Source of the DNA: an uncultured Bacteroidales bacterium
GTDB lineage: Bacteria; Bacteroidota; Bacteroidia; Bacteroidales; VadinHA17
Length of the DNA: 64,000 bases
Direction: 5' to 3'
Assembly (NCBI GenBank): GCA_963825165.1
Contig: CAWGRY010000003.1
Span: 129,605-193,604, forward strand
Both the position numbers and the translations under genes were made by a program. Each line of letters starts with the position of its first letter. Position 1 is the first letter of the stretch. Below the pieces are notes generated by a model. It was not told the DNA's origin, searched no databases, and was given only the letters and a program-made list of their open reading frames with translations. Below are positions 7,923 to 13,533 of the stretch, piece after piece.

Positions 7923-9047
7923 TCAGCTCCAGATTCCGGGTATCACAGTTCCGCAACTGCATTTTCCGTTTTTCAGTCTGTCAGCTACGATCCGGAAGCC
8001 GCTTCTTTCGATCACCTTCTGTTTGCATGACGGGCAGATTGTATCATCAATACTTGTTCCTGGCACATTACCTATATAAATGTATTTAAGGCCTTCTTCG
8101 CGTGCGATCGCTGCAGCAATGTCAAGGATGCTGGCAGGGGTGGGAGGCAGATGCTCGAGCTTGTATTGTGGCTGAAAACGACTGAAGTGTATTGGTACAT
8201 CGGTGAACCCGTTGTCAGCAAGCCACCGGCACATGAGCCTGATCTCTTCCGGCTTGTCAGTCCAGCCCGGGACAATGAGGTTGGTGATCTCAAGCCACAC
8301 GCCTTCATCCCTGTATATCTTCAGCGCATCAAGAACAGGTTGAAGCTTGCCACCGCTAAGCTTAAGATATGTACTTTCATTGAACGATTTGAGATCGATA
8401 TTGGCGCCGTCGATATAGCGGCAGAGCTCTTTAAGCGGCTCCCTGTTGATGTAGCCGTTTGAATGCATAATATTCTTTATTCCTTCGGCGCGCGCTGCCT
8501 TTGATGTCTCATATACATATTCATAGAAAGTAACGGGCTCCGAATAGGTGTACGCTATAGACTTGCAGTTGCCTGATATGGCATTTGCCACCACATCTTC
8601 CGGAGGCATATCATAGTTCCTTGTCTTGTCGGGCGAGGTCTGTGAGATAGTCCAGTTCTGACAGTTGAGACAGGCAAAATTGCATCCGGCAGTTGCAATG
8701 GAGAATGCTGTTGACCCCGGAAGAAAATGATAGAGTGGTTTTTTCTCAACAGGATCAATATTCACCGCACACGGATTGCCAAAGGCCATGGTATATAGCT
8801 TTGACTTCCTGACGACCCTGTTGTGGCAGTCACTTAACTCACCTTCTTTCGGTGTACACTCATTGGGGCAGATCTTGCACACTACCCCGCGGGCGCTCTC
8901 CTCCTGGAACATTGCCAGCCTTTCCTTTGGCGCCGGTTTCATGCCCTGCAGGCTCAAAGGAGCAATGACACCGGCTGCCACCGCCAGCGAACCCTGCCTG
9001 GCGAATGTCCTTCGTGTGATCTTTCTGCCTCTGACCCCCAATGTCAT
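7923..9047 (-). CDS. amrS: AmmeMemoRadiSam-system radical SAM enzyme (AmrS-like) with an N-terminal twin-arginine signal-like extension
   Basis: 374 aa. CX3CX2C motif GCNFACLNCQNW, IDPVEKKPLYHFLPGS, and an N-terminal Cys cluster CKICPNEC...C. It shares an operon with a Memo/AMMECR1 fusion. The N-terminus is MTLGVRGRKITRRTFARQGSLAVAAGVIAPLSLQG. Confidence 0.85.
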   Translation of the reverse strand: MTLGVRGRKITRRTFARQGSLAVAAGVIAPLSLQGMKPAPKERLAMFQEESARGVVCKICPNECTPKEGELSDCHNRVVRKSKLYTMAFGNPCAVNIDPVEKKPLYHFLPGSTAFSIATAGCNFACLNCQNWTISQTSPDKTRNYDMPPEDVVANAISGNCKSIAYTYSEPVTFYEYVYETSKAARAEGIKNIMHSNGYINREPLKELCRYIDGANIDLKSFNESTYLKLSGGKLQPVLDALKIYRDEGVWLEITNLIVPGWTDKPEEIRLMCRWLADNGFTDVPIHFSRFQPQYKLEHLPPTPASILDIAAAIAREEGLKYIYIGNVPGTSIDDTICPSCKQKVIERSGFRIVADRLKNGKCSCGTVIPGIWS

Positions 9048-9073: not shown

Positions 9074-11494
9074 CTAATGCTTAAAGGGCACTGAAACAAT
9101 AATTCCGGCGATTAAAATTACGGCTGCAAGAATAAAAGATGCATTGCTTATTCCTGCCAGTGGTACAAGTACAGTTGAAACTGTCAGGTATCCCAATGCT
9201 GATCCGGCCAGGTCGGAGGCATACACTCTCCCGGTAATCCCCTGTATGCCTGATAATGTCAGCATCCGGTACACTGACCCGGTGAGGAACCCGGCTGCAA
9301 GCAGGAAGATGAAAATGACAGGTAACACAATGCCGGGAGCTGTTGTGACAAACGAGGGTGCAAGAAATCCTGTGACACCATATATGACTGCCAGTAGCGC
9401 AGTACGGATCATAATCGGCCCGGCTGCGCTGATGCGGCCCCAGCCTGCTCCGGCAGCCAGTCCCGCCATTAGCAGCGTCAGCACGAAAGCGGAGAGTAAA
9501 TAAATGTTACCAACCGTCAACTGCACTATAAAGATCATAATCATGCCAAAGCCGGCCAGTCCTGCGGAAGAGGCAAACATCATCAGGCTGTCCCTGCGTA
9601 TAAAAACAAAGGGGATGATAACCATCAGAACCATCACTGCAACAACGCCGCCCGCTATTCCTTTGCTCTCAAGCGACAGCATATTTGTGAACCACGATGA
9701 TACGGGCCTGGTTGCAGTATTGAAACCGGCCGTGGTGTCAGCCTGCATAATGATCTGCCCGCTCTTGCGCCTCGATTCTTCATCGTTAAGATAATCACCG
9801 TTCACGTAACTGTTCTGAATTCCGCTTCTTGCCGCCAGAACGGAGATTGAATCAGACAGGGGACTGTCTGATGCAATGACATAAAGCAATGATCCGGGTA
9901 TCAGAACTACATGGTCAAAGACCTCGCTGAGGGCGTTGTATACCGGAGAAAATCCCTTAATGTAGCTTTCAGGAGAATAGTTAAAATAAGGCATCGGGGT
10001 ACACAGGAAGATCCCTCCGGGGGAGAGATGTTCCTTTACCAACCTGAAATATTCAATGGTGAAGTACCTGTCGACTGATAACGTGGCAGGCGGGGGTATG
10101 AGCTGCAGGACAGCATCGTAAATATCACTGTTTCTCCTCATAAAGGAGAGAGGGTCACTCTTTCTGACGCTTATTGTCATTCTGACGGCCAGTGTGTCGT
10201 GCGCACCTTCGGCAGCGATAATACCAGGGTCGTGTTCAAGGTATAACACCTCACCTATGTCATGTTTTTCAAGCTGTTCGATATGCTTCATCAGGCCGCC
10301 GGAAATCACCATTACCTTTTCATACTTATCTCTCTGGAGAAGTGCATAATGAATATTCTCCTCAGCCCTGATGATATCGCCGGAAAAGAAGAGAGGCCTG
10401 TGATCGTAAAAAATGACAGACTCGTCCCCGTAGGTGCCGGTGGTGATATTTCCGTAAGGGGTATCTGTGCTCTTCTCTGCCTTCACACCCCGCAGAAGCA
10501 CACTTCTTATGGCGGGGTCAGGGCTGAAGATCAACACAATCACCGCCATCAGAAATGCGCCTGTCATCGCTGTCCGGCGAACCCTGACGCGGTAGCCGGT
10601 GAGCATGACCACCAGGCTCACAGATAAAAGCAGAATAATAATGTACAGCTGATAGTTGGAAATGTAAAGGGTAACGTTGATGGTTGTGAGTATCCCGGCA
10701 GCAACCGAACCTGCCGTCTCGGTACTGAAACTGCTGCCCGGCACTATTGCACTGTCAAGTTGTCTTATCGCAGACAGCCTGATGAAGATGAATGATGAGA
10801 TGAAGGTAACGGGAGCCACGCTCACCGAAATTATGGCCAGGGTTTTTAGTACAGAGGGTGACTCGCCGGGCGCAATAAGAAACCTGTTCATAAACAGAAA
10901 AAAGAGCGGTGCAAGAGTCATGCCTGCAATCAGTGTCCACATCATCTTCCTCAGGTCATTTATGCCGGACCTTCCTCCGGTGATGGCACCGGCAGCGGCG
11001 ATGATCAGCCAGAGCCACAGGAAGAAGCCTGCAGAAGCCTCTGTTCCGCCCCCGAGAATGACCGCTTCGCGCATGAGAATAAACTGAACCGCTGAGCTCG
11101 CAAACCCTGTCAGCATAAGCAGCTTCGCGATTGCGTTACCGTTCAGTTCCCTATGTGCATAAGCTTCCCTTGCCCTTTCCGCGTCACTGTTTTTGTTTTT
11201 TCCGAAATAATATTGCAGATGCCAGGTCAGGTGAATTATTGCGGCGAACGCCATTGCGATGCCCGTCTCCACATGCCAGTGAAGCAGCTGCCCTGAAAAA
11301 GGTATATTCCACTTGTAGGTGATTTTCAGGGCCATGAACAGGCCGAATAAGCCAGCTGTCAGAAATGTACCAAACAGCGCCCAGTTCCAGAAGCGCCGGT
11401 GAGATTGCTTATCAAGGAAACCGGTTGAAGAAAGGGAAAGAGTAAACAGATAAATTACGAGTATGGTCAGTCCTATCGGAAGAACATGATACAT
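9074..11494 (-). CDS. polytopic membrane protein with a central spermidine-synthase-like (class I MTase fold) domain
   Basis: 806 aa. Many hydrophobic segments occur in residues 1-330 and 620-806. The central soluble region has VMVISGGLMKHIEQLEKHDIGEVLYLEHDPGIIAAE ... YDAVLQLIPPP, resembling the SpeE GGGDG / D-x-D layout. An N-terminal His-rich TM pair reads LHWHVETGIAMAFAAIIHLTWHLQYY. Confidence 0.7.
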   Translation of the reverse strand: MYHVLPIGLTILVIYLFTLSLSSTGFLDKQSHRRFWNWALFGTFLTAGLFGLFMALKITYKWNIPFSGQLLHWHVETGIAMAFAAIIHLTWHLQYYFGKNKNSDAERAREAYAHRELNGNAIAKLLMLTGFASSAVQFILMREAVILGGGTEASAGFFLWLWLIIAAAGAITGGRSGINDLRKMMWTLIAGMTLAPLFFLFMNRFLIAPGESPSVLKTLAIISVSVAPVTFISSFIFIRLSAIRQLDSAIVPGSSFSTETAGSVAAGILTTINVTLYISNYQLYIIILLLSVSLVVMLTGYRVRVRRTAMTGAFLMAVIVLIFSPDPAIRSVLLRGVKAEKSTDTPYGNITTGTYGDESVIFYDHRPLFFSGDIIRAEENIHYALLQRDKYEKVMVISGGLMKHIEQLEKHDIGEVLYLEHDPGIIAAEGAHDTLAVRMTISVRKSDPLSFMRRNSDIYDAVLQLIPPPATLSVDRYFTIEYFRLVKEHLSPGGIFLCTPMPYFNYSPESYIKGFSPVYNALSEVFDHVVLIPGSLLYVIASDSPLSDSISVLAARSGIQNSYVNGDYLNDEESRRKSGQIIMQADTTAGFNTATRPVSSWFTNMLSLESKGIAGGVVAVMVLMVIIPFVFIRRDSLMMFASSAGLAGFGMIMIFIVQLTVGNIYLLSAFVLTLLMAGLAAGAGWGRISAAGPIMIRTALLAVIYGVTGFLAPSFVTTAPGIVLPVIFIFLLAAGFLTGSVYRMLTLSGIQGITGRVYASDLAGSALGYLTVSTVLVPLAGISNASFILAAVILIAGIIVSVPFKH

Positions 11495-11505
11495 CAGGTT
11501 ATATC

Positions 11506-13011
11506 TTATTCACCGAAGACATAGGCTTCATAGGTAAAAATCTCAGTATCCTTATCTTTCCATCCGTCCCAGCCAATACCTGCCTTATCACGGGCGCAGC
11601 AGCCGAGGAACTCGGTTACGCTCCAACCCCTTTCAGTAGCCACCTGGGGCAGCAGGGTGCCGGACCTGACACCTTTTTTGAGGTAGATGCCGTGCTTTCC
11701 GATCTTGATCTGATTGATGTCAGTAATCTTGGTCATCGGTCCCAGGACTGATATCTCAAGGTGTATATCAGGATATTCGGCGGTTGTAAGGGGAGAGAAC
11801 CTCGGGTCATCGAATGCTGCCTCCAGGGCCATTGTACCGATGACTTCCCAGAGGGGATCAGGAGAGGTGAACCGTCCGATGCAACCCCGCAGGTTACCAT
11901 CAATTGTAATTGTGACAAATGCTCCCAGCGGCTCTTTCAGGCGGGGTGTCAGCTTCGCAGCATCGACGGTGCGTGGCTTTGTTCCCCTGAGTTTTGCAGA
12001 GATAGATTCGCGTGCAATGCCCAGCAGGGTCTTCTTCTCCTCAGCTGTAAGCGAGAACTCATCCATAGGAGCGAGCTTATGTGCTTCAGGTGCCTTCTCA
12101 TCGACAACAATGGCATTGTACCCTACCACCTCATCCCTGTTCCCGTGAGGAGAATCTCCTGAATTTCTGTATTCGACATTACGTAGTCTCAGGCTGCTCT
12201 CATCTTCAGTGAGGTACAGGAGAATCAGCGCTGCTGTCCATCCGCACATGGCTGTGGAGAGGTTGTCGATTCCGGAAGCTTCCACATCCCTGATGGTCTT
12301 GAGGAAGACATCAGGATCACCGGTCAGAATAGCATCACTGGTGAGCTTGTCTGCCCTGACTGCTTCAGTATAGGATGGGTAATGCGAGAAATCGCTGCTT
12401 ATAATAAACAGGTTCCGTTCATTGAACCAGGGACTGAGCTCTGAGGCTATCAGGTCAAGCATGGTGATATTGCGCGTGCCCAGCAGTATAGGCACGACCA
12501 TAGGGGTTTTGCTGAAGTGAAACTGGATGAAGGGAAGCTGAACCTCCAGCGAGTGCTCCGACTTGTGTGCGTCATCCATATTAATGAACCATTTGCTTTT
12601 GCTTACCAGTTCGTCTCCCAGGGTCCTGTTCACCTGTACTGTGCCAAGCGGTGTCACCATATTGCCTGAAGTGAACACAGCGGCACCGTCGAATGAATAC
12701 CTGTGACTCACCCCTATAAGAAATATGTTGTCATACTCTGCGTCCTCAGGCACGGCTGCATAACCGGCCGCAGCAGTGTGTCCCGAATAGACATAACCGG
12801 CATGCGGCAAGATCAGTGCTCTCACCCTCTTACCGGAAGAAACACTTTTCAATGAGTTGAAATATCCTGCGAGCTCGCTATTCAGTTTGTCGCTGCCGGC
12901 AGGATAAAAGCTGCCTGCCACCGCAGGCTGCCTGTCATGCCCGGCTTCCTGTCCGTTGATGTTCATAAGCGGGATTATTAAAGTCATTAAGATAATACTA
13001 ACCGTTTTCAT
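11506..13011 (-). CDS. fused AmmeMemoRadiSam protein B (Memo-like) / protein A (AMMECR1-like) with a Sec-type signal peptide
   Basis: 501 aa. N-terminus MKTVSIILMTLIIPLMNINGQ, then the Memo start PAVAGSFYPAG and ILPHAGYVYSGHTAA. The C-terminal half has AMMECR1 motifs GAFVTITIDGNLRGCIGRF and GIYLKKGVRSGTLLPQV. Confidence 0.88.
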   Translation of the reverse strand: MKTVSIILMTLIIPLMNINGQEAGHDRQPAVAGSFYPAGSDKLNSELAGYFNSLKSVSSGKRVRALILPHAGYVYSGHTAAAGYAAVPEDAEYDNIFLIGVSHRYSFDGAAVFTSGNMVTPLGTVQVNRTLGDELVSKSKWFINMDDAHKSEHSLEVQLPFIQFHFSKTPMVVPILLGTRNITMLDLIASELSPWFNERNLFIISSDFSHYPSYTEAVRADKLTSDAILTGDPDVFLKTIRDVEASGIDNLSTAMCGWTAALILLYLTEDESSLRLRNVEYRNSGDSPHGNRDEVVGYNAIVVDEKAPEAHKLAPMDEFSLTAEEKKTLLGIARESISAKLRGTKPRTVDAAKLTPRLKEPLGAFVTITIDGNLRGCIGRFTSPDPLWEVIGTMALEAAFDDPRFSPLTTAEYPDIHLEISVLGPMTKITDINQIKIGKHGIYLKKGVRSGTLLPQVATERGWSVTEFLGCCARDKAGIGWDGWKDKDTEIFTYEAYVFGE

Positions 13012-13074: not shown

Positions 13075-13533
13075 TTAGATAAGTACGATATTTTCCTTAA
13101 TGGTGTTTCCGTCTTCATCAATGCCGTATAGCCTTATACCTACACTGCATGTGGCATCAGCCGTAACATCGAGGAACGGAGACAGAGATTCCCTTACATC
13201 TTCCTCACCCATGGAATCATACTCCTCAATATCAAAGTAAAGATGTACAAAAAGTATATGATCGCTTTTTTTGATCTTGGTCAGTGTCTTCAGAATCTTC
13301 CCCATCCAGATAACCGAGGATGTGTTAAAATAGTCGACGTTGAATTTCAGGTTTGTACTCTCGGCCGGGTTCTTGGCATATTCGCCCGCCCATTTATAAA
13401 GAGGCTCGAAAAATGATGATGCATTCTCCGGTAATGATTTGCCCGTAAAGGCCAATATACCTGTTTCTGCCACAAAACTCACCATCGGTGTCTTGGACGT
13501 GGCCTCAATCCTTATATCCTGTAGTTTAACCAT
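13075..13533 (-). CDS. DUF1987 / SiaC-family protein
   Basis: 152 aa. TSKTPMVSF...GILAFTGKSLPENASSFFEPLYKW...VDYFNTSSVIWMGKIL matches the SiaC/DUF1987 pattern (TP-V-F, G-S-PEN, YFNTSS). Confidence 0.75.
   Translation of the reverse strand: MVKLQDIRIEATSKTPMVSFVAETGILAFTGKSLPENASSFFEPLYKWAGEYAKNPAESTNLKFNVDYFNTSSVIWMGKILKTLTKIKKSDHILFVHLYFDIEEYDSMGEEDVRESLSPFLDVTADATCSVGIRLYGIDEDGNTIKENIVLI

Follow-up and report, generated by a model that had tools for sequence, protein, structure and literature searches.

The window analysed here, a stretch of DNA of 64,000 nucleotides, carries on its minus strand an operon headed by a SiaC/DUF1987-like gene (13075..13533), which was recognised by phmmer and has no signal. 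It is followed on the same strand by a gene for a fusion of Memo (AmrB) and AMMECR1 (AmrA) at 11506..13011, a gene for an 806-aa polytopic membrane protein at 9074..11494, and the gene for the radical SAM enzyme AmrS at 7923..9047. The SiaC/DUF1987-like gene is kept in the closest relatives, and the gene order is identical in loci L002, L003, L086 and L087. The AmrS reading frame starts with an ATG at 9047, ends at 7923 and encodes 374 aa; re-reading it reproduced exactly the coordinates and sequence of the RR N-terminus as given in the first-pass annotation, with Met36 at 8942 and Met46 at 8912.

The mature radical SAM domain of AmrS (7923..8942, minus strand) is supported by TIGR04337, PF04055, the alignment of cysteines and an AF2 model (pLDDT 94). 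TIGR04337 matches residues 52-373 with 340.1 bits (E 1.2e-101; cut-off 220 bits), and PF04055 scores 73.5 bits. All 57 aligned sequences keep the three Cys of the radical SAM motif C122-x3-C126-x2-C129, which is flanked by an N-terminal (C57, C60, C64, C74) and a C-terminal (C338, C341, C363, C365) 4-Cys motif. AmrS also has the genomic neighbours expected of the family, a Memo-like protein (B) and an AMMECR1-like protein (A), here encoded by the fused B-A gene two genes upstream. A search of the PDB returned no solved structure for the AmrS family; the closest sequence was PFL-AE (E 1.6e-10), which is also the closest solved fold (3cb8, TM 0.82, rmsd 2.6). The identity of the two is however only ~20%, and the NCBIfam PFL-AE models reach 61 bits on AmrS against a cut-off of 232. 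AmrS is further set apart from PFL-AE and other glycyl-radical activases in that PFL-AE is cytoplasmic and has neither a signal nor the N- and C-terminal 4-Cys motifs.

We know of no function for the AmmeMemoRadiSam system in any organism. A comparative study of Memo-AMMECR1-rSAM contexts by Burroughs et al. 2019 reportedly proposed nucleotide-base or isoprenoid modification. The operon described here resembles the canonical system in that all three models (TIGR04337, TIGR04336 and TIGR04335) score above their cut-offs, the genes are adjacent, and both the radical SAM motif and the accessory Cys motifs are retained. It departs from it by the putative Tat signal on the radical SAM enzyme, by the fusion of proteins A and B behind a Sec signal, and by the 806-aa membrane protein, with its predicted outward SpeE-fold domain, that sits in between.

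The candidate twin-arginine signal peptide of AmrS comprises residues 1-35 (8943..9047, minus strand), which read MTLGVRGRKITRRTFARQGSLAVAAGVIAPLSLQG from 9047 to 8943; we assign it on the basis of motif, hydrophobicity, conservation and context, with the homologue consensus, the AF2 model and purifying selection as further support. The n-region, MTLGVRGRKI, leads into the Tat motif T-R-R-T-F-A-R at residues 11-17, in line with the S/T-R-R-x-F-L-K consensus; this is followed by an h-region, QGSLAVAAGVIAPLSL, of 15 residues that is Ala/Gly-rich and moderately hydrophobic, and by a candidate signal peptidase I site, L-Q-G before M, with a small residue at -1. The length of the h-region falls within the ~13-20 residues usual for Tat signals, and its best 12-mer has a KD value of 2.07, in keeping with their lower hydrophobicity compared with Sec signals; this value lies in the range of the other RRxF candidates of the genome (1.3-2.2), whereas KR/Sec-type N-termini range from 2.2 to 3.5. 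The TIGR04337 alignment opens only at residue 52, equivalent to profile position 9, and the first ~45 residues are thus an add-on to the family core. C57, which begins the first family-wide Cys motif, lies 45 residues past the RR pair, the distance that the first-pass annotation had estimated to the Cys-rich start. The genome also encodes an AmrS paralogue without a signal, whose alignment begins at residue 48 of the AmrS described here. The AF2 model places little confidence in residues 1-40, where a helix at 12-28 stands apart from the rest; in the core, which begins at residue 41, the pLDDT exceeds 96.

The extension is no chance feature but is conserved among AmrS homologues, a comparison that the first-pass annotation had suggested: (S/T)-(R/K)-R-x-F with an h-region at the same spacing occurs in 108/120 close cluster representatives (65-93% identity). 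Their consensus is (S/T)(R85/K23)RxF(A/I)(R/K)..GSLAxAAG..AP(100/108)LxLx(A/G/S 88/108). R/K-R-x-F is found in all 108, with Phe in 107; Pro at -6 is kept in 100 and A/G/S at -1 in 88, while position -3 is mostly L/S/A/V. The replacement of R-R by K-R in 23 of these 108 sequences counts against a reading as Tat export. Down to 50-65% identity, the extension stays in frame. Across the signal region, pN is 0.10-0.27 and pS 0.59-0.90, and between L086 and L087 pN is nearly the same in the signal (0.105) as in the core (0.101); this substitution pattern indicates that the signal region is under purifying selection.

The same data bear on the proposal, also made in the first-pass annotation, that the start was mis-called, with Met36 or Met46 as the true start and the RR stretch left untranslated as a leader. 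Some homologues in the databases do open at the equivalent later Met. However, for two homologues annotated as short (339 and 329 aa), the DNA ahead of the called start encodes this signal in frame, beginning with TTG; Met36 is not conserved among homologues, and just 26 nt separate the upstream stop from the ATG at 9047. Given the conservation of the extension to 50-65% identity, the TTG-started upstream signals and a pN far below pS, we reject the mis-called start, which is now scarcely credible.

The genome also encodes the required machinery, with TatC (231.9 bits) and two TatA/B/E genes (56 and 54 bits), and 41 of its ORFs have an N-terminus with RRxF and an h-region, some of them followed by Cys-rich, Fe-S-type sequence (unannotated here). 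It is well established that Tat exports folded, cofactor-loaded proteins. Among these are Fe-S proteins (DmsB/NrfC/HybA-type ferredoxin subunits, Rieske) that have signals of the same S/T-R-R-x-F-L-K type and acquire their clusters before export; they differ from AmrS in being electron-transfer subunits, none of which uses SAM.

Both larger partners in the operon appear to face outwards. The Memo-AMMECR1 fusion scores above the cut-offs of TIGR04336 (226.7 bits) and TIGR04335 (164 bits), and begins with a predicted Sec/SPI signal that would be cut between MKTVSIILMTLIIPLMNING and QEAG. The layout, MK-TVSIILMTLIIPLM-NING followed by Q, has the n/h/c architecture of such signals. Its Gln at +1 agrees with the Q-rule of Bacteroidetes, by which Gln occupies +1 after the Sec/SPI site (PMC5837995), and a small residue followed by Q stands at the predicted site in ~12 of the 13 Bacteroidota/Ignavibacteriota partners that were read by eye.

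The 806-aa protein was analysed by Pfam, AF2 (pLDDT 86.5, pTM 0.87), Foldseek and positive-inside counts. It consists of a His-bearing three-helix module (residues 1-118), seven TM helices (~119-333), a spermidine-synthase-fold domain (337-609) and another six or seven TM helices (614-806). PF01564 matches it weakly, and in Foldseek SpeE structures match at TM 0.65-0.70. The K/R-rich loops of the model all lie on the side opposite to the SpeE-fold domain (574 vs 149 K/R over 30 homologues), and the positive-inside rule predicts a periplasmic domain for each of the 30 homologues examined. The protein lacks the marks of a spermidine synthase or polyamine aminopropyltransferase and has only the fold in common with these: no NCBIfam model gives it more than 34.5 bits (cut-off 472), and, both in the consensus and by direct reading, the GGGDG loop is SGGLM and the D-S-T-D-P catalytic segment is Q-L-I-P-P-P-A-T, without an Asp. 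It resembles the PRK03612-type membrane-bound spermidine-synthase-like proteins in combining a TM bundle with an aminopropyltransferase fold, and differs from them by a second TM bundle, by the His-rich N-terminal module and by the predicted periplasmic location of the SpeE-fold domain. In the N-terminal module, H74, H88 and H92 are invariant (11 sequences). Against Pfam the module gives a weak match to Ferric_reduct (E 0.01) and none to DUF4405, a homologue encoded as a separate ORF in L012 scores 26.5 bits, just under the cut-off of 26.7, and the module family shows weak matches to DUF4405 and cytochrome b561; these sub-threshold Pfam matches suggest a weak resemblance to haem-b modules.

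In the AmrS family at large (150 representatives at 50% identity), 31 members from many phyla carry RR signals, and 89 have no N-terminal extension. We surveyed loci in 80 species genomes from many phyla. A signal-like N-terminus is present on the Memo(-AMMECR1) partner in 24/24 loci with a Tat-type AmrS and in 7/7 loci where the AmrS N-terminus is hydrophobic and lacks RR, whereas the partner has none in 6/14 loci with a signal-less AmrS. The SpeE-like membrane gene flanks AmrS in 34/50 Tat-type loci vs 3/22 signal-less ones. Within a well-supported clade of Bacteroidota/Ignavibacteriota, signal-less AmrS proteins are nested inside Tat-bearing ones, and most of these nested forms also lack both the partner signal and the membrane gene. 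For AmrS signal and partner signal, the raw Fisher test gives a p of 3e-5, which overstates the association because there are only 2-5 phylogenetically independent contrasts; with 2-5 usable independent pairs, no significance can be claimed for the link of the AmrS signal to either the partner signal or the membrane gene.

Two features of the survey count against the export reading. In twelve loci, from Omnitrophota, Planctomycetota and Chlamydiota, the AmrS N-terminus is strongly hydrophobic and lacks RR; it cannot be a Tat signal, and it hints that the common theme may be membrane tethering, not export. In five loci, a partner with a signal stands beside an AmrS without one. One explanation is that the Tat signal of AmrS is inserted but not cleaved, as in Rieske proteins, so that AmrS stays anchored on the periplasmic side of the inner membrane, next to the 806-aa protein; the catalytic domain would then still be outside. 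The conserved polytopic partner gene makes the function appear membrane-associated, the hydrophobic N-termini in the sister lineages are long and anchor-like, and the residue at -3 is often Leu, not Ala. On the other hand, the h-region has only ~15 residues and contains one Pro, and every 19-residue window stays below the TM threshold (KD 1.6), so that we discard a stable TM anchor; the conserved Pro at -6 and small residue at -1 are also typical of cleaved signals. We thus consider an uncleaved anchor rather unlikely.

The five mismatched loci also show that the compartments of enzyme and partner need not match, and AmrS could remain cytoplasmic, with catalysis there and the signal serving as an inner-face membrane tether or persisting as a decaying relic. 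This would leave the enzyme where SAM and flavodoxin/ferredoxin are available. The positive charges ahead of the hydrophobic segment however lead one to expect an N-in/C-out orientation, the exact Tat consensus with its near-invariant Phe at +2 (107/108) would be needless for a mere tether, the signal region is under purifying selection, and the Tat machinery is encoded and in use in this genome. A cytoplasmic AmrS is, in our view, very unlikely.

We thus favour the genuine Tat-type topology that the first-pass annotation had listed among its options, given the canonical motif, the short h-region, the conserved Pro and -1 residue, the Tat genes and the outward-facing partners. It is fairly likely that residues 1-35 of AmrS are a real, translated twin-arginine signal and that the operon encodes an extracytoplasmic variant of AmmeMemoRadiSam; since AmrS has a conserved Tat signal and its partners face outwards, the system probably acts outside the cytoplasmic membrane. 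What the analysis shows is that the signal is there, that it is conserved and under selection, that the genome has Tat genes, and that the partners have signals or a predicted topology facing outwards; from these features we infer export of AmrS, cleavage of its signal and the site of its catalysis. AmrS would fold in the cytoplasm and receive there its radical SAM [4Fe-4S] cluster as well as the clusters of the two further 4-Cys sites. The Tat translocase would then carry the folded protein through the inner membrane, signal peptidase I would most likely cut it after ...LQG, and in the periplasm AmrS would meet the Sec-exported Memo-AMMECR1 and the outward SpeE-fold domain of the 806-aa protein. 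This sequence of steps is what would make the operon an extracytoplasmic AmmeMemoRadiSam variant, and its substrate is probably in the envelope or the membrane.

Radical SAM enzymes need SAM and an electron donor of very low potential. To our knowledge, neither SAM nor a low-potential reductant is known in the periplasm, and these enzymes are treated as strictly cytoplasmic, with none that we know of shown to work in the periplasm. The literature that we covered on AmmeMemoRadiSam, on radical SAM enzymes with Tat or the periplasm, and on AMMECR1 with signals (a coverage that did not extend to Burroughs et al. 2019) describes no exported AmrS and no radical SAM enzyme working in the periplasm. 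The paradox raised in the first-pass annotation, that a radical SAM enzyme outside the cytoplasm would be short of SAM and reductant, is real, and the operon offers candidates for its solution, not proof. We speculate that bound SAM and a reduced cluster might be carried through Tat, with AmrS acting as a one-shot enzyme of the activase type, which would fit its PFL-activase-like fold. Equally speculatively, the 806-aa protein might provide SAM through its outward nucleoside-binding-fold domain and electrons through its His-rich, haem-b-like module.

On the most far-reaching reading, radical SAM catalysis would itself be periplasmic, the 806-aa protein would be the supply line for SAM and electrons, and AmrS, together with Memo-AMMECR1, would modify an envelope lipid, isoprenoid or protein. 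The transporter-like TM body and the outward SAM-fold domain might supply SAM or keep it bound, or else clear away 5'-deoxyadenosine or methionine, while the accessory Fe-S sites of AmrS might receive electrons from across the membrane through the His-rich, DUF4405-like module. We put this forward tentatively, as possible and not yet probable.

Alternatively, the chemistry might precede export: a radical reaction in the cytoplasm, on AmrS itself, a bound cofactor or a small molecule, after which AmrS would be exported to join a periplasmic complex, in which its part would be that of carrier, redox subunit or scaffold. This would resolve the paradox without new biology, it makes use of the ability of Tat to export proteins already folded and loaded with cofactor, and the two extra conserved 4-Cys sites could act in redox reactions outside. 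There is also a known paradigm, in that the radical SAM maturases QhpD and anSME stay in the cytoplasm and modify signal-bearing periplasmic proteins before export. The same holds for HxsB/C of the HXS defence system, where the radical SAM enzyme is cytoplasmic and the substrate bears the signal (PMC13128918). In all of these, as perhaps here, radical SAM chemistry serves a periplasmic end product, whereas here the signal is on the enzyme itself. Against this, Memo-AMMECR1, if exported unfolded by Sec, can meet AmrS only outside, the outward SAM-fold domain and the AmrS signal tend to occur together, and members with and without a signal do not differ in the conservation of the SAM-cluster Cys or of E170-P171 within the conserved TYxEP segment. 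Chemistry completed before export therefore seems improbable to us, and we retain the extracytoplasmic AmmeMemoRadiSam variant as our reading of the operon.

The data reveal a large, conserved, multi-phylum branch of AmrS with Tat signals, partners predicted to be Sec-exported and a link to a SAM-fold domain predicted to face outwards. If AmrS is indeed exported, either SAM-radical chemistry would be possible outside the cytoplasm, which would imply that SAM and electrons cross the membrane by routes not yet known, or the exported enzymes would be pre-loaded, single-shot reagents. The human homologues of Memo and AMMECR1 are reportedly linked to disease, as described by Burroughs et al. 2019. 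The exported variant would provide a concrete handle on these unexplained proteins, and it points to a substrate in the envelope or the membrane.

The radical SAM enzyme AmrS is encoded on the reverse strand by an ORF of 374 aa (ATG at 9047, end at 7923), and this ATG lies 26 nt behind the stop codon of the gene before it. The family model TIGR04337 matches at 340 bits (cut-off 220), only from residue 52 on, while PF04055 covers residues 118-269 and C57 opens the first family-wide Cys motif; on each criterion tested, the protein belongs to the AmmeMemoRadiSam radical SAM family. The sequence of residues 1-35, MTLGVRGRKITRRTFARQGSLAVAAGVIAPLSLQG, agrees in full with the first-pass annotation, and the positions of two internal methionines (Met36 at 8942 and Met46 at 8912) were also confirmed on re-reading. 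All three regions of a Tat signal are found in this segment: a basic n-region that closes with T-R-R-T-F-A-R, an h-region of 15 residues (Ala/Gly/Val, moderate hydrophobicity), and a c-region P-L-S-L-Q-G, followed by M-K-P. In a hydrophobicity scan of the whole protein no 19-residue window reached the transmembrane threshold, so the segment resembles a signal peptide more than a stable anchor, though a membrane tether is a reading that the sequence also permits. In an AlphaFold2 model from a 57-sequence alignment, the core is confident from residue 41 (pLDDT above 96), while residues 1-40 are of low confidence, with a detached helix at 12-28.

A mis-called start, with translation beginning at Met36 or Met46, had been raised in the first-pass annotation as one explanation for the extension, together with the question of whether the RR motif is conserved. 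A homologue search of 5.8 billion proteins yielded 120 cluster representatives with 65-93% identity to AmrS, and the motif is indeed conserved: in 108 of them (S/T)-(R/K)-R-x-F precedes ..GSLAxAAG..AP.L.L.(A/G/S), and the spacing to the Cys motif is constant at 45-50 residues. Among these 108, 85 have R-R and 23 have K-R at the twin-arginine position, Phe at +2 is kept in 107, Pro is found six residues ahead of the putative cleavage site in 100, and the -1 residue is small in 88. The other twelve entries are shorter and at first seemed to be counter-examples; we inspected the DNA of two, P0080 (339 aa) and P0086 (329 aa), and these short forms are gene-calling artefacts, because the signal is encoded in frame upstream, as LK(Y/D)KGKKISRR(W/S)FARQGSLAVAAGFIAP..., from a TTG start. 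Codon comparison supports translation of the signal region: nonsynonymous change there is low (pN 0.10-0.27), with synonymous sites saturated (pS 0.59-0.90); for the pair L086 and L087, signal and core have pN values of 0.105 and 0.101, respectively. The same genome encodes a signal-less paralogue outside the window (G000:C3:371537-372496; L089:1477-2475; 332 aa, 40% identity), with no Memo or AMMECR1 gene nearby; it aligns from query residue 48, so the extension is specific to the operon copy. Given this conservation, the TTG-started upstream copies, the low pN and the paralogue alignment, we reject the mis-called start.

The genome (3.68 Mb, 96.7% complete) encodes TatC (231.9 bits) and two TatA/B/E proteins. 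A crude scan of its ORFs of at least 200 aa for N-termini that combine RRxF with an h-region gave 41 candidates, several of which, on an unannotated reading, continue into Cys-rich, Fe-S-type or redox-enzyme-like sequence. The hydrophobicity of the AmrS h-region (2.07) lies inside the range of the RRxF candidates, and below the K-R/Sec-type and lipoprotein-type N-termini of the same list.

The operon, all on the reverse strand, is headed by a SiaC/DUF1987-like gene (13533-13075), followed by a Memo-AMMECR1 fusion (13011-11506), an 806-aa membrane protein (11494-9074) and AmrS, with ligA downstream (7891-5885); this order is kept in relatives at 66-78% identity. The flanking SiaC/DUF1987-like gene and ligA hold their positions in the loci L002, L003, L086 and L087. 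The fusion begins with a Sec/SPI signal, MKTVSIILMTLIIPLMNING|QEAG, and its predicted cleavage exposes a Gln, as the Bacteroidetes Q-rule for Sec/SPI cleavage predicts (PMC5837995). Read by eye, a small-residue|Q junction is present in ~12 of 13 Bacteroidota/Ignavibacteriota partners. Against two AmrS genes, the genome holds a single Memo and a single AMMECR1 domain, and the exported fusion carries both; this imbalance does not fit the export picture.

The 806-aa protein, modelled with 30 homologues (pLDDT 86.5, pTM 0.87), consists of three N-terminal helices, seven TM helices, an alpha/beta domain (337-609) and six or seven further TM helices. The alpha/beta domain superposes on spermidine/thermospermine synthases (TM 0.65-0.70, 15-20% identity). 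The K/R-rich loops of the model (24-36, 96-121, 173-184, 238-252, 297-308, 630-636, 683-697 and 742-757) all lie on one side and this SpeE-fold domain on the opposite side, so that by the positive-inside rule the domain is predicted to be periplasmic; over the 30 homologues, "inside" loops hold 574 K/R vs 149 in "outside" loops, each sequence being concordant. A bona fide aminopropyltransferase was rejected: the NCBIfam score is 34.5 bits (cut-off 472), SGGLM stands in place of the GGGDG loop of the SpeE fold, and another sequence takes the place of the catalytic Asp segment. The conserved E420, within a VE.DP-like segment, is by analogy to SpeE a candidate ribose-contacting position. Residues 1-118 (11141-11494, reverse strand) form a three-helix module with invariant H74, H88 and H92. 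In the window's clade this module is part of the SpeE-like membrane protein, whereas two other Bacteroidales (L012, 5462-5794; L013, 4343-4681) encode it as a small ORF of its own. The module's matches to DUF4405, cytochrome b561 and ferric-reductase TM models are weak and none exceeds the cut-off; a haem-b electron module is no more than a hint.

The reading of the N-terminus as a genuine Tat export signal, the unusual topology of the first-pass annotation, is supported. The analysis shows that this Fe-S enzyme has a conserved Tat-type signal under selection, that the genome has tat genes, that the partner has a Sec signal and that the SpeE-fold domain is predicted to face outward.

Across the best 150 representatives of the family at 50% identity, 31 have an RR signal at single-domain spacing, 89 have no N-terminal extension, and 30 are fusions, fragments or variants. 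Long fusions of 590-1150 aa (P0122, P0125, P0129, P0130, P0133, P0134, P0138 and others) join the AmrS domain to N-terminal membrane regions, Memo/AMMECR1-like or other domains. A scan of one genome per species gave 80 AmrS loci from Bacteroidota, Ignavibacteriota, Thermodesulfobacteriota, Omnitrophota, Planctomycetota, Verrucomicrobiota, Nitrospirota, Acidobacteriota, KSB1 and others. With the window and L002 and L003 (the same homologue) added, a census by ORF calling and phmmer (n=83) used an automatic N-terminus classifier and counted partners only where a complete one lay in the flank. Tat-type AmrS (50 loci) had signal-like partners in 24/24 and a SpeE-like membrane gene in the flank in 34/50; hydrophobic non-RR AmrS (11 loci) in 7/7 and 5/11; and AmrS without a signal (22 loci) in 8/14, three of these eight being doubtful calls, and 3/22.

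For the tree and Fisher tests L003 was dropped and some classes were corrected by hand (three Verrucomicrobiota loci called none became Tat, L041, called Tat, became hydrophobic non-RR, and two loci were set to unknown), giving 51 Tat, 12 hydrophobic non-RR and 17 none, and the 2x2 tables therefore differ slightly from the automatic counts. The raw Fisher values are 3e-5 and 0.002, relatedness being ignored; a sign test would need more than the 2-5 independent contrasts available. In the AmrS-core tree the window falls within a clade of eight Tat-bearing sequences (SH-aLRT 99), and about five changes from exported to none are enough to explain the whole tree. Of the 29 members of a well-supported Bacteroidota/Ignavibacteriota clade, 18 bear a Tat signal and 11 have none; ten of these 11 form one nested group in which the partner signal is also gone in most and the membrane gene is nearby in none. 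The pattern has the appearance of a coordinated return to the cytoplasm.

Some loci do not fit export. Twelve, from Omnitrophota, Planctomycetota, Chlamydiota and some unclassified bacteria (L031, L039, L041, L042, L044, L055, L056, L062, L063, L066, L070 and L077), have strongly hydrophobic non-RR AmrS N-termini. These resemble Sec-type signals or TM anchors, and their Memo-AMMECR1 partners are signal-bearing too. Sec would not be the expected route for an Fe-S enzyme, so these N-termini may be anchors of uncertain orientation. In five others (L017, L023, L029, L045 and L047) a signal-less AmrS adjoins a fusion with a signal-like N-terminus, and judged from these N-termini the two proteins would reside in different compartments.

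We suggest that AmrS would fold and gain its clusters in the cytoplasm, be carried by Tat across the inner membrane, probably be cleaved after LQG, and act at the membrane's outer face with Memo-AMMECR1 and the membrane protein. Tat transports folded, ligand-bound proteins, and AmrS could be pre-loaded with SAM and electrons as a one-shot activase of its partner; its nearest fold is PFL-activating enzyme (TM 0.82), which consumes one SAM per activation event. Alternatively, SAM and electrons might be supplied through the 806-aa protein, with its outward nucleoside-binding fold, large TM body and possible haem-b module. It is also possible that the chemistry precedes export and the exported AmrS has another role. 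We consider genuine export with function outside, cleaved or uncleaved, to be the probable outcome; periplasmic SAM-radical catalysis, whether or not it has a supply line of its own, accounts for only a share of that reading, and its fully specified version, catalysis fed by the 806-aa protein, we regard as rather unlikely.

A structure search found no solved structure of the AmrS family. Our literature search found no mention of AmrS export, though the gene-context comparison of Burroughs et al. 2019 may hold one. Compared with the AmmeMemoRadiSam system, the window variant is marked by export signals, the fusion of AmrA and AmrB, and a fourth component, the membrane protein. The known radical SAM maturases that serve periplasmic products stay inside, and their substrate is exported. 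The HXS system is an example (PMC13128918); there the enzyme is kept inside, whereas the AmrS of the window itself bears the signal. An exported AmrS would be surprising for radical SAM enzymology.
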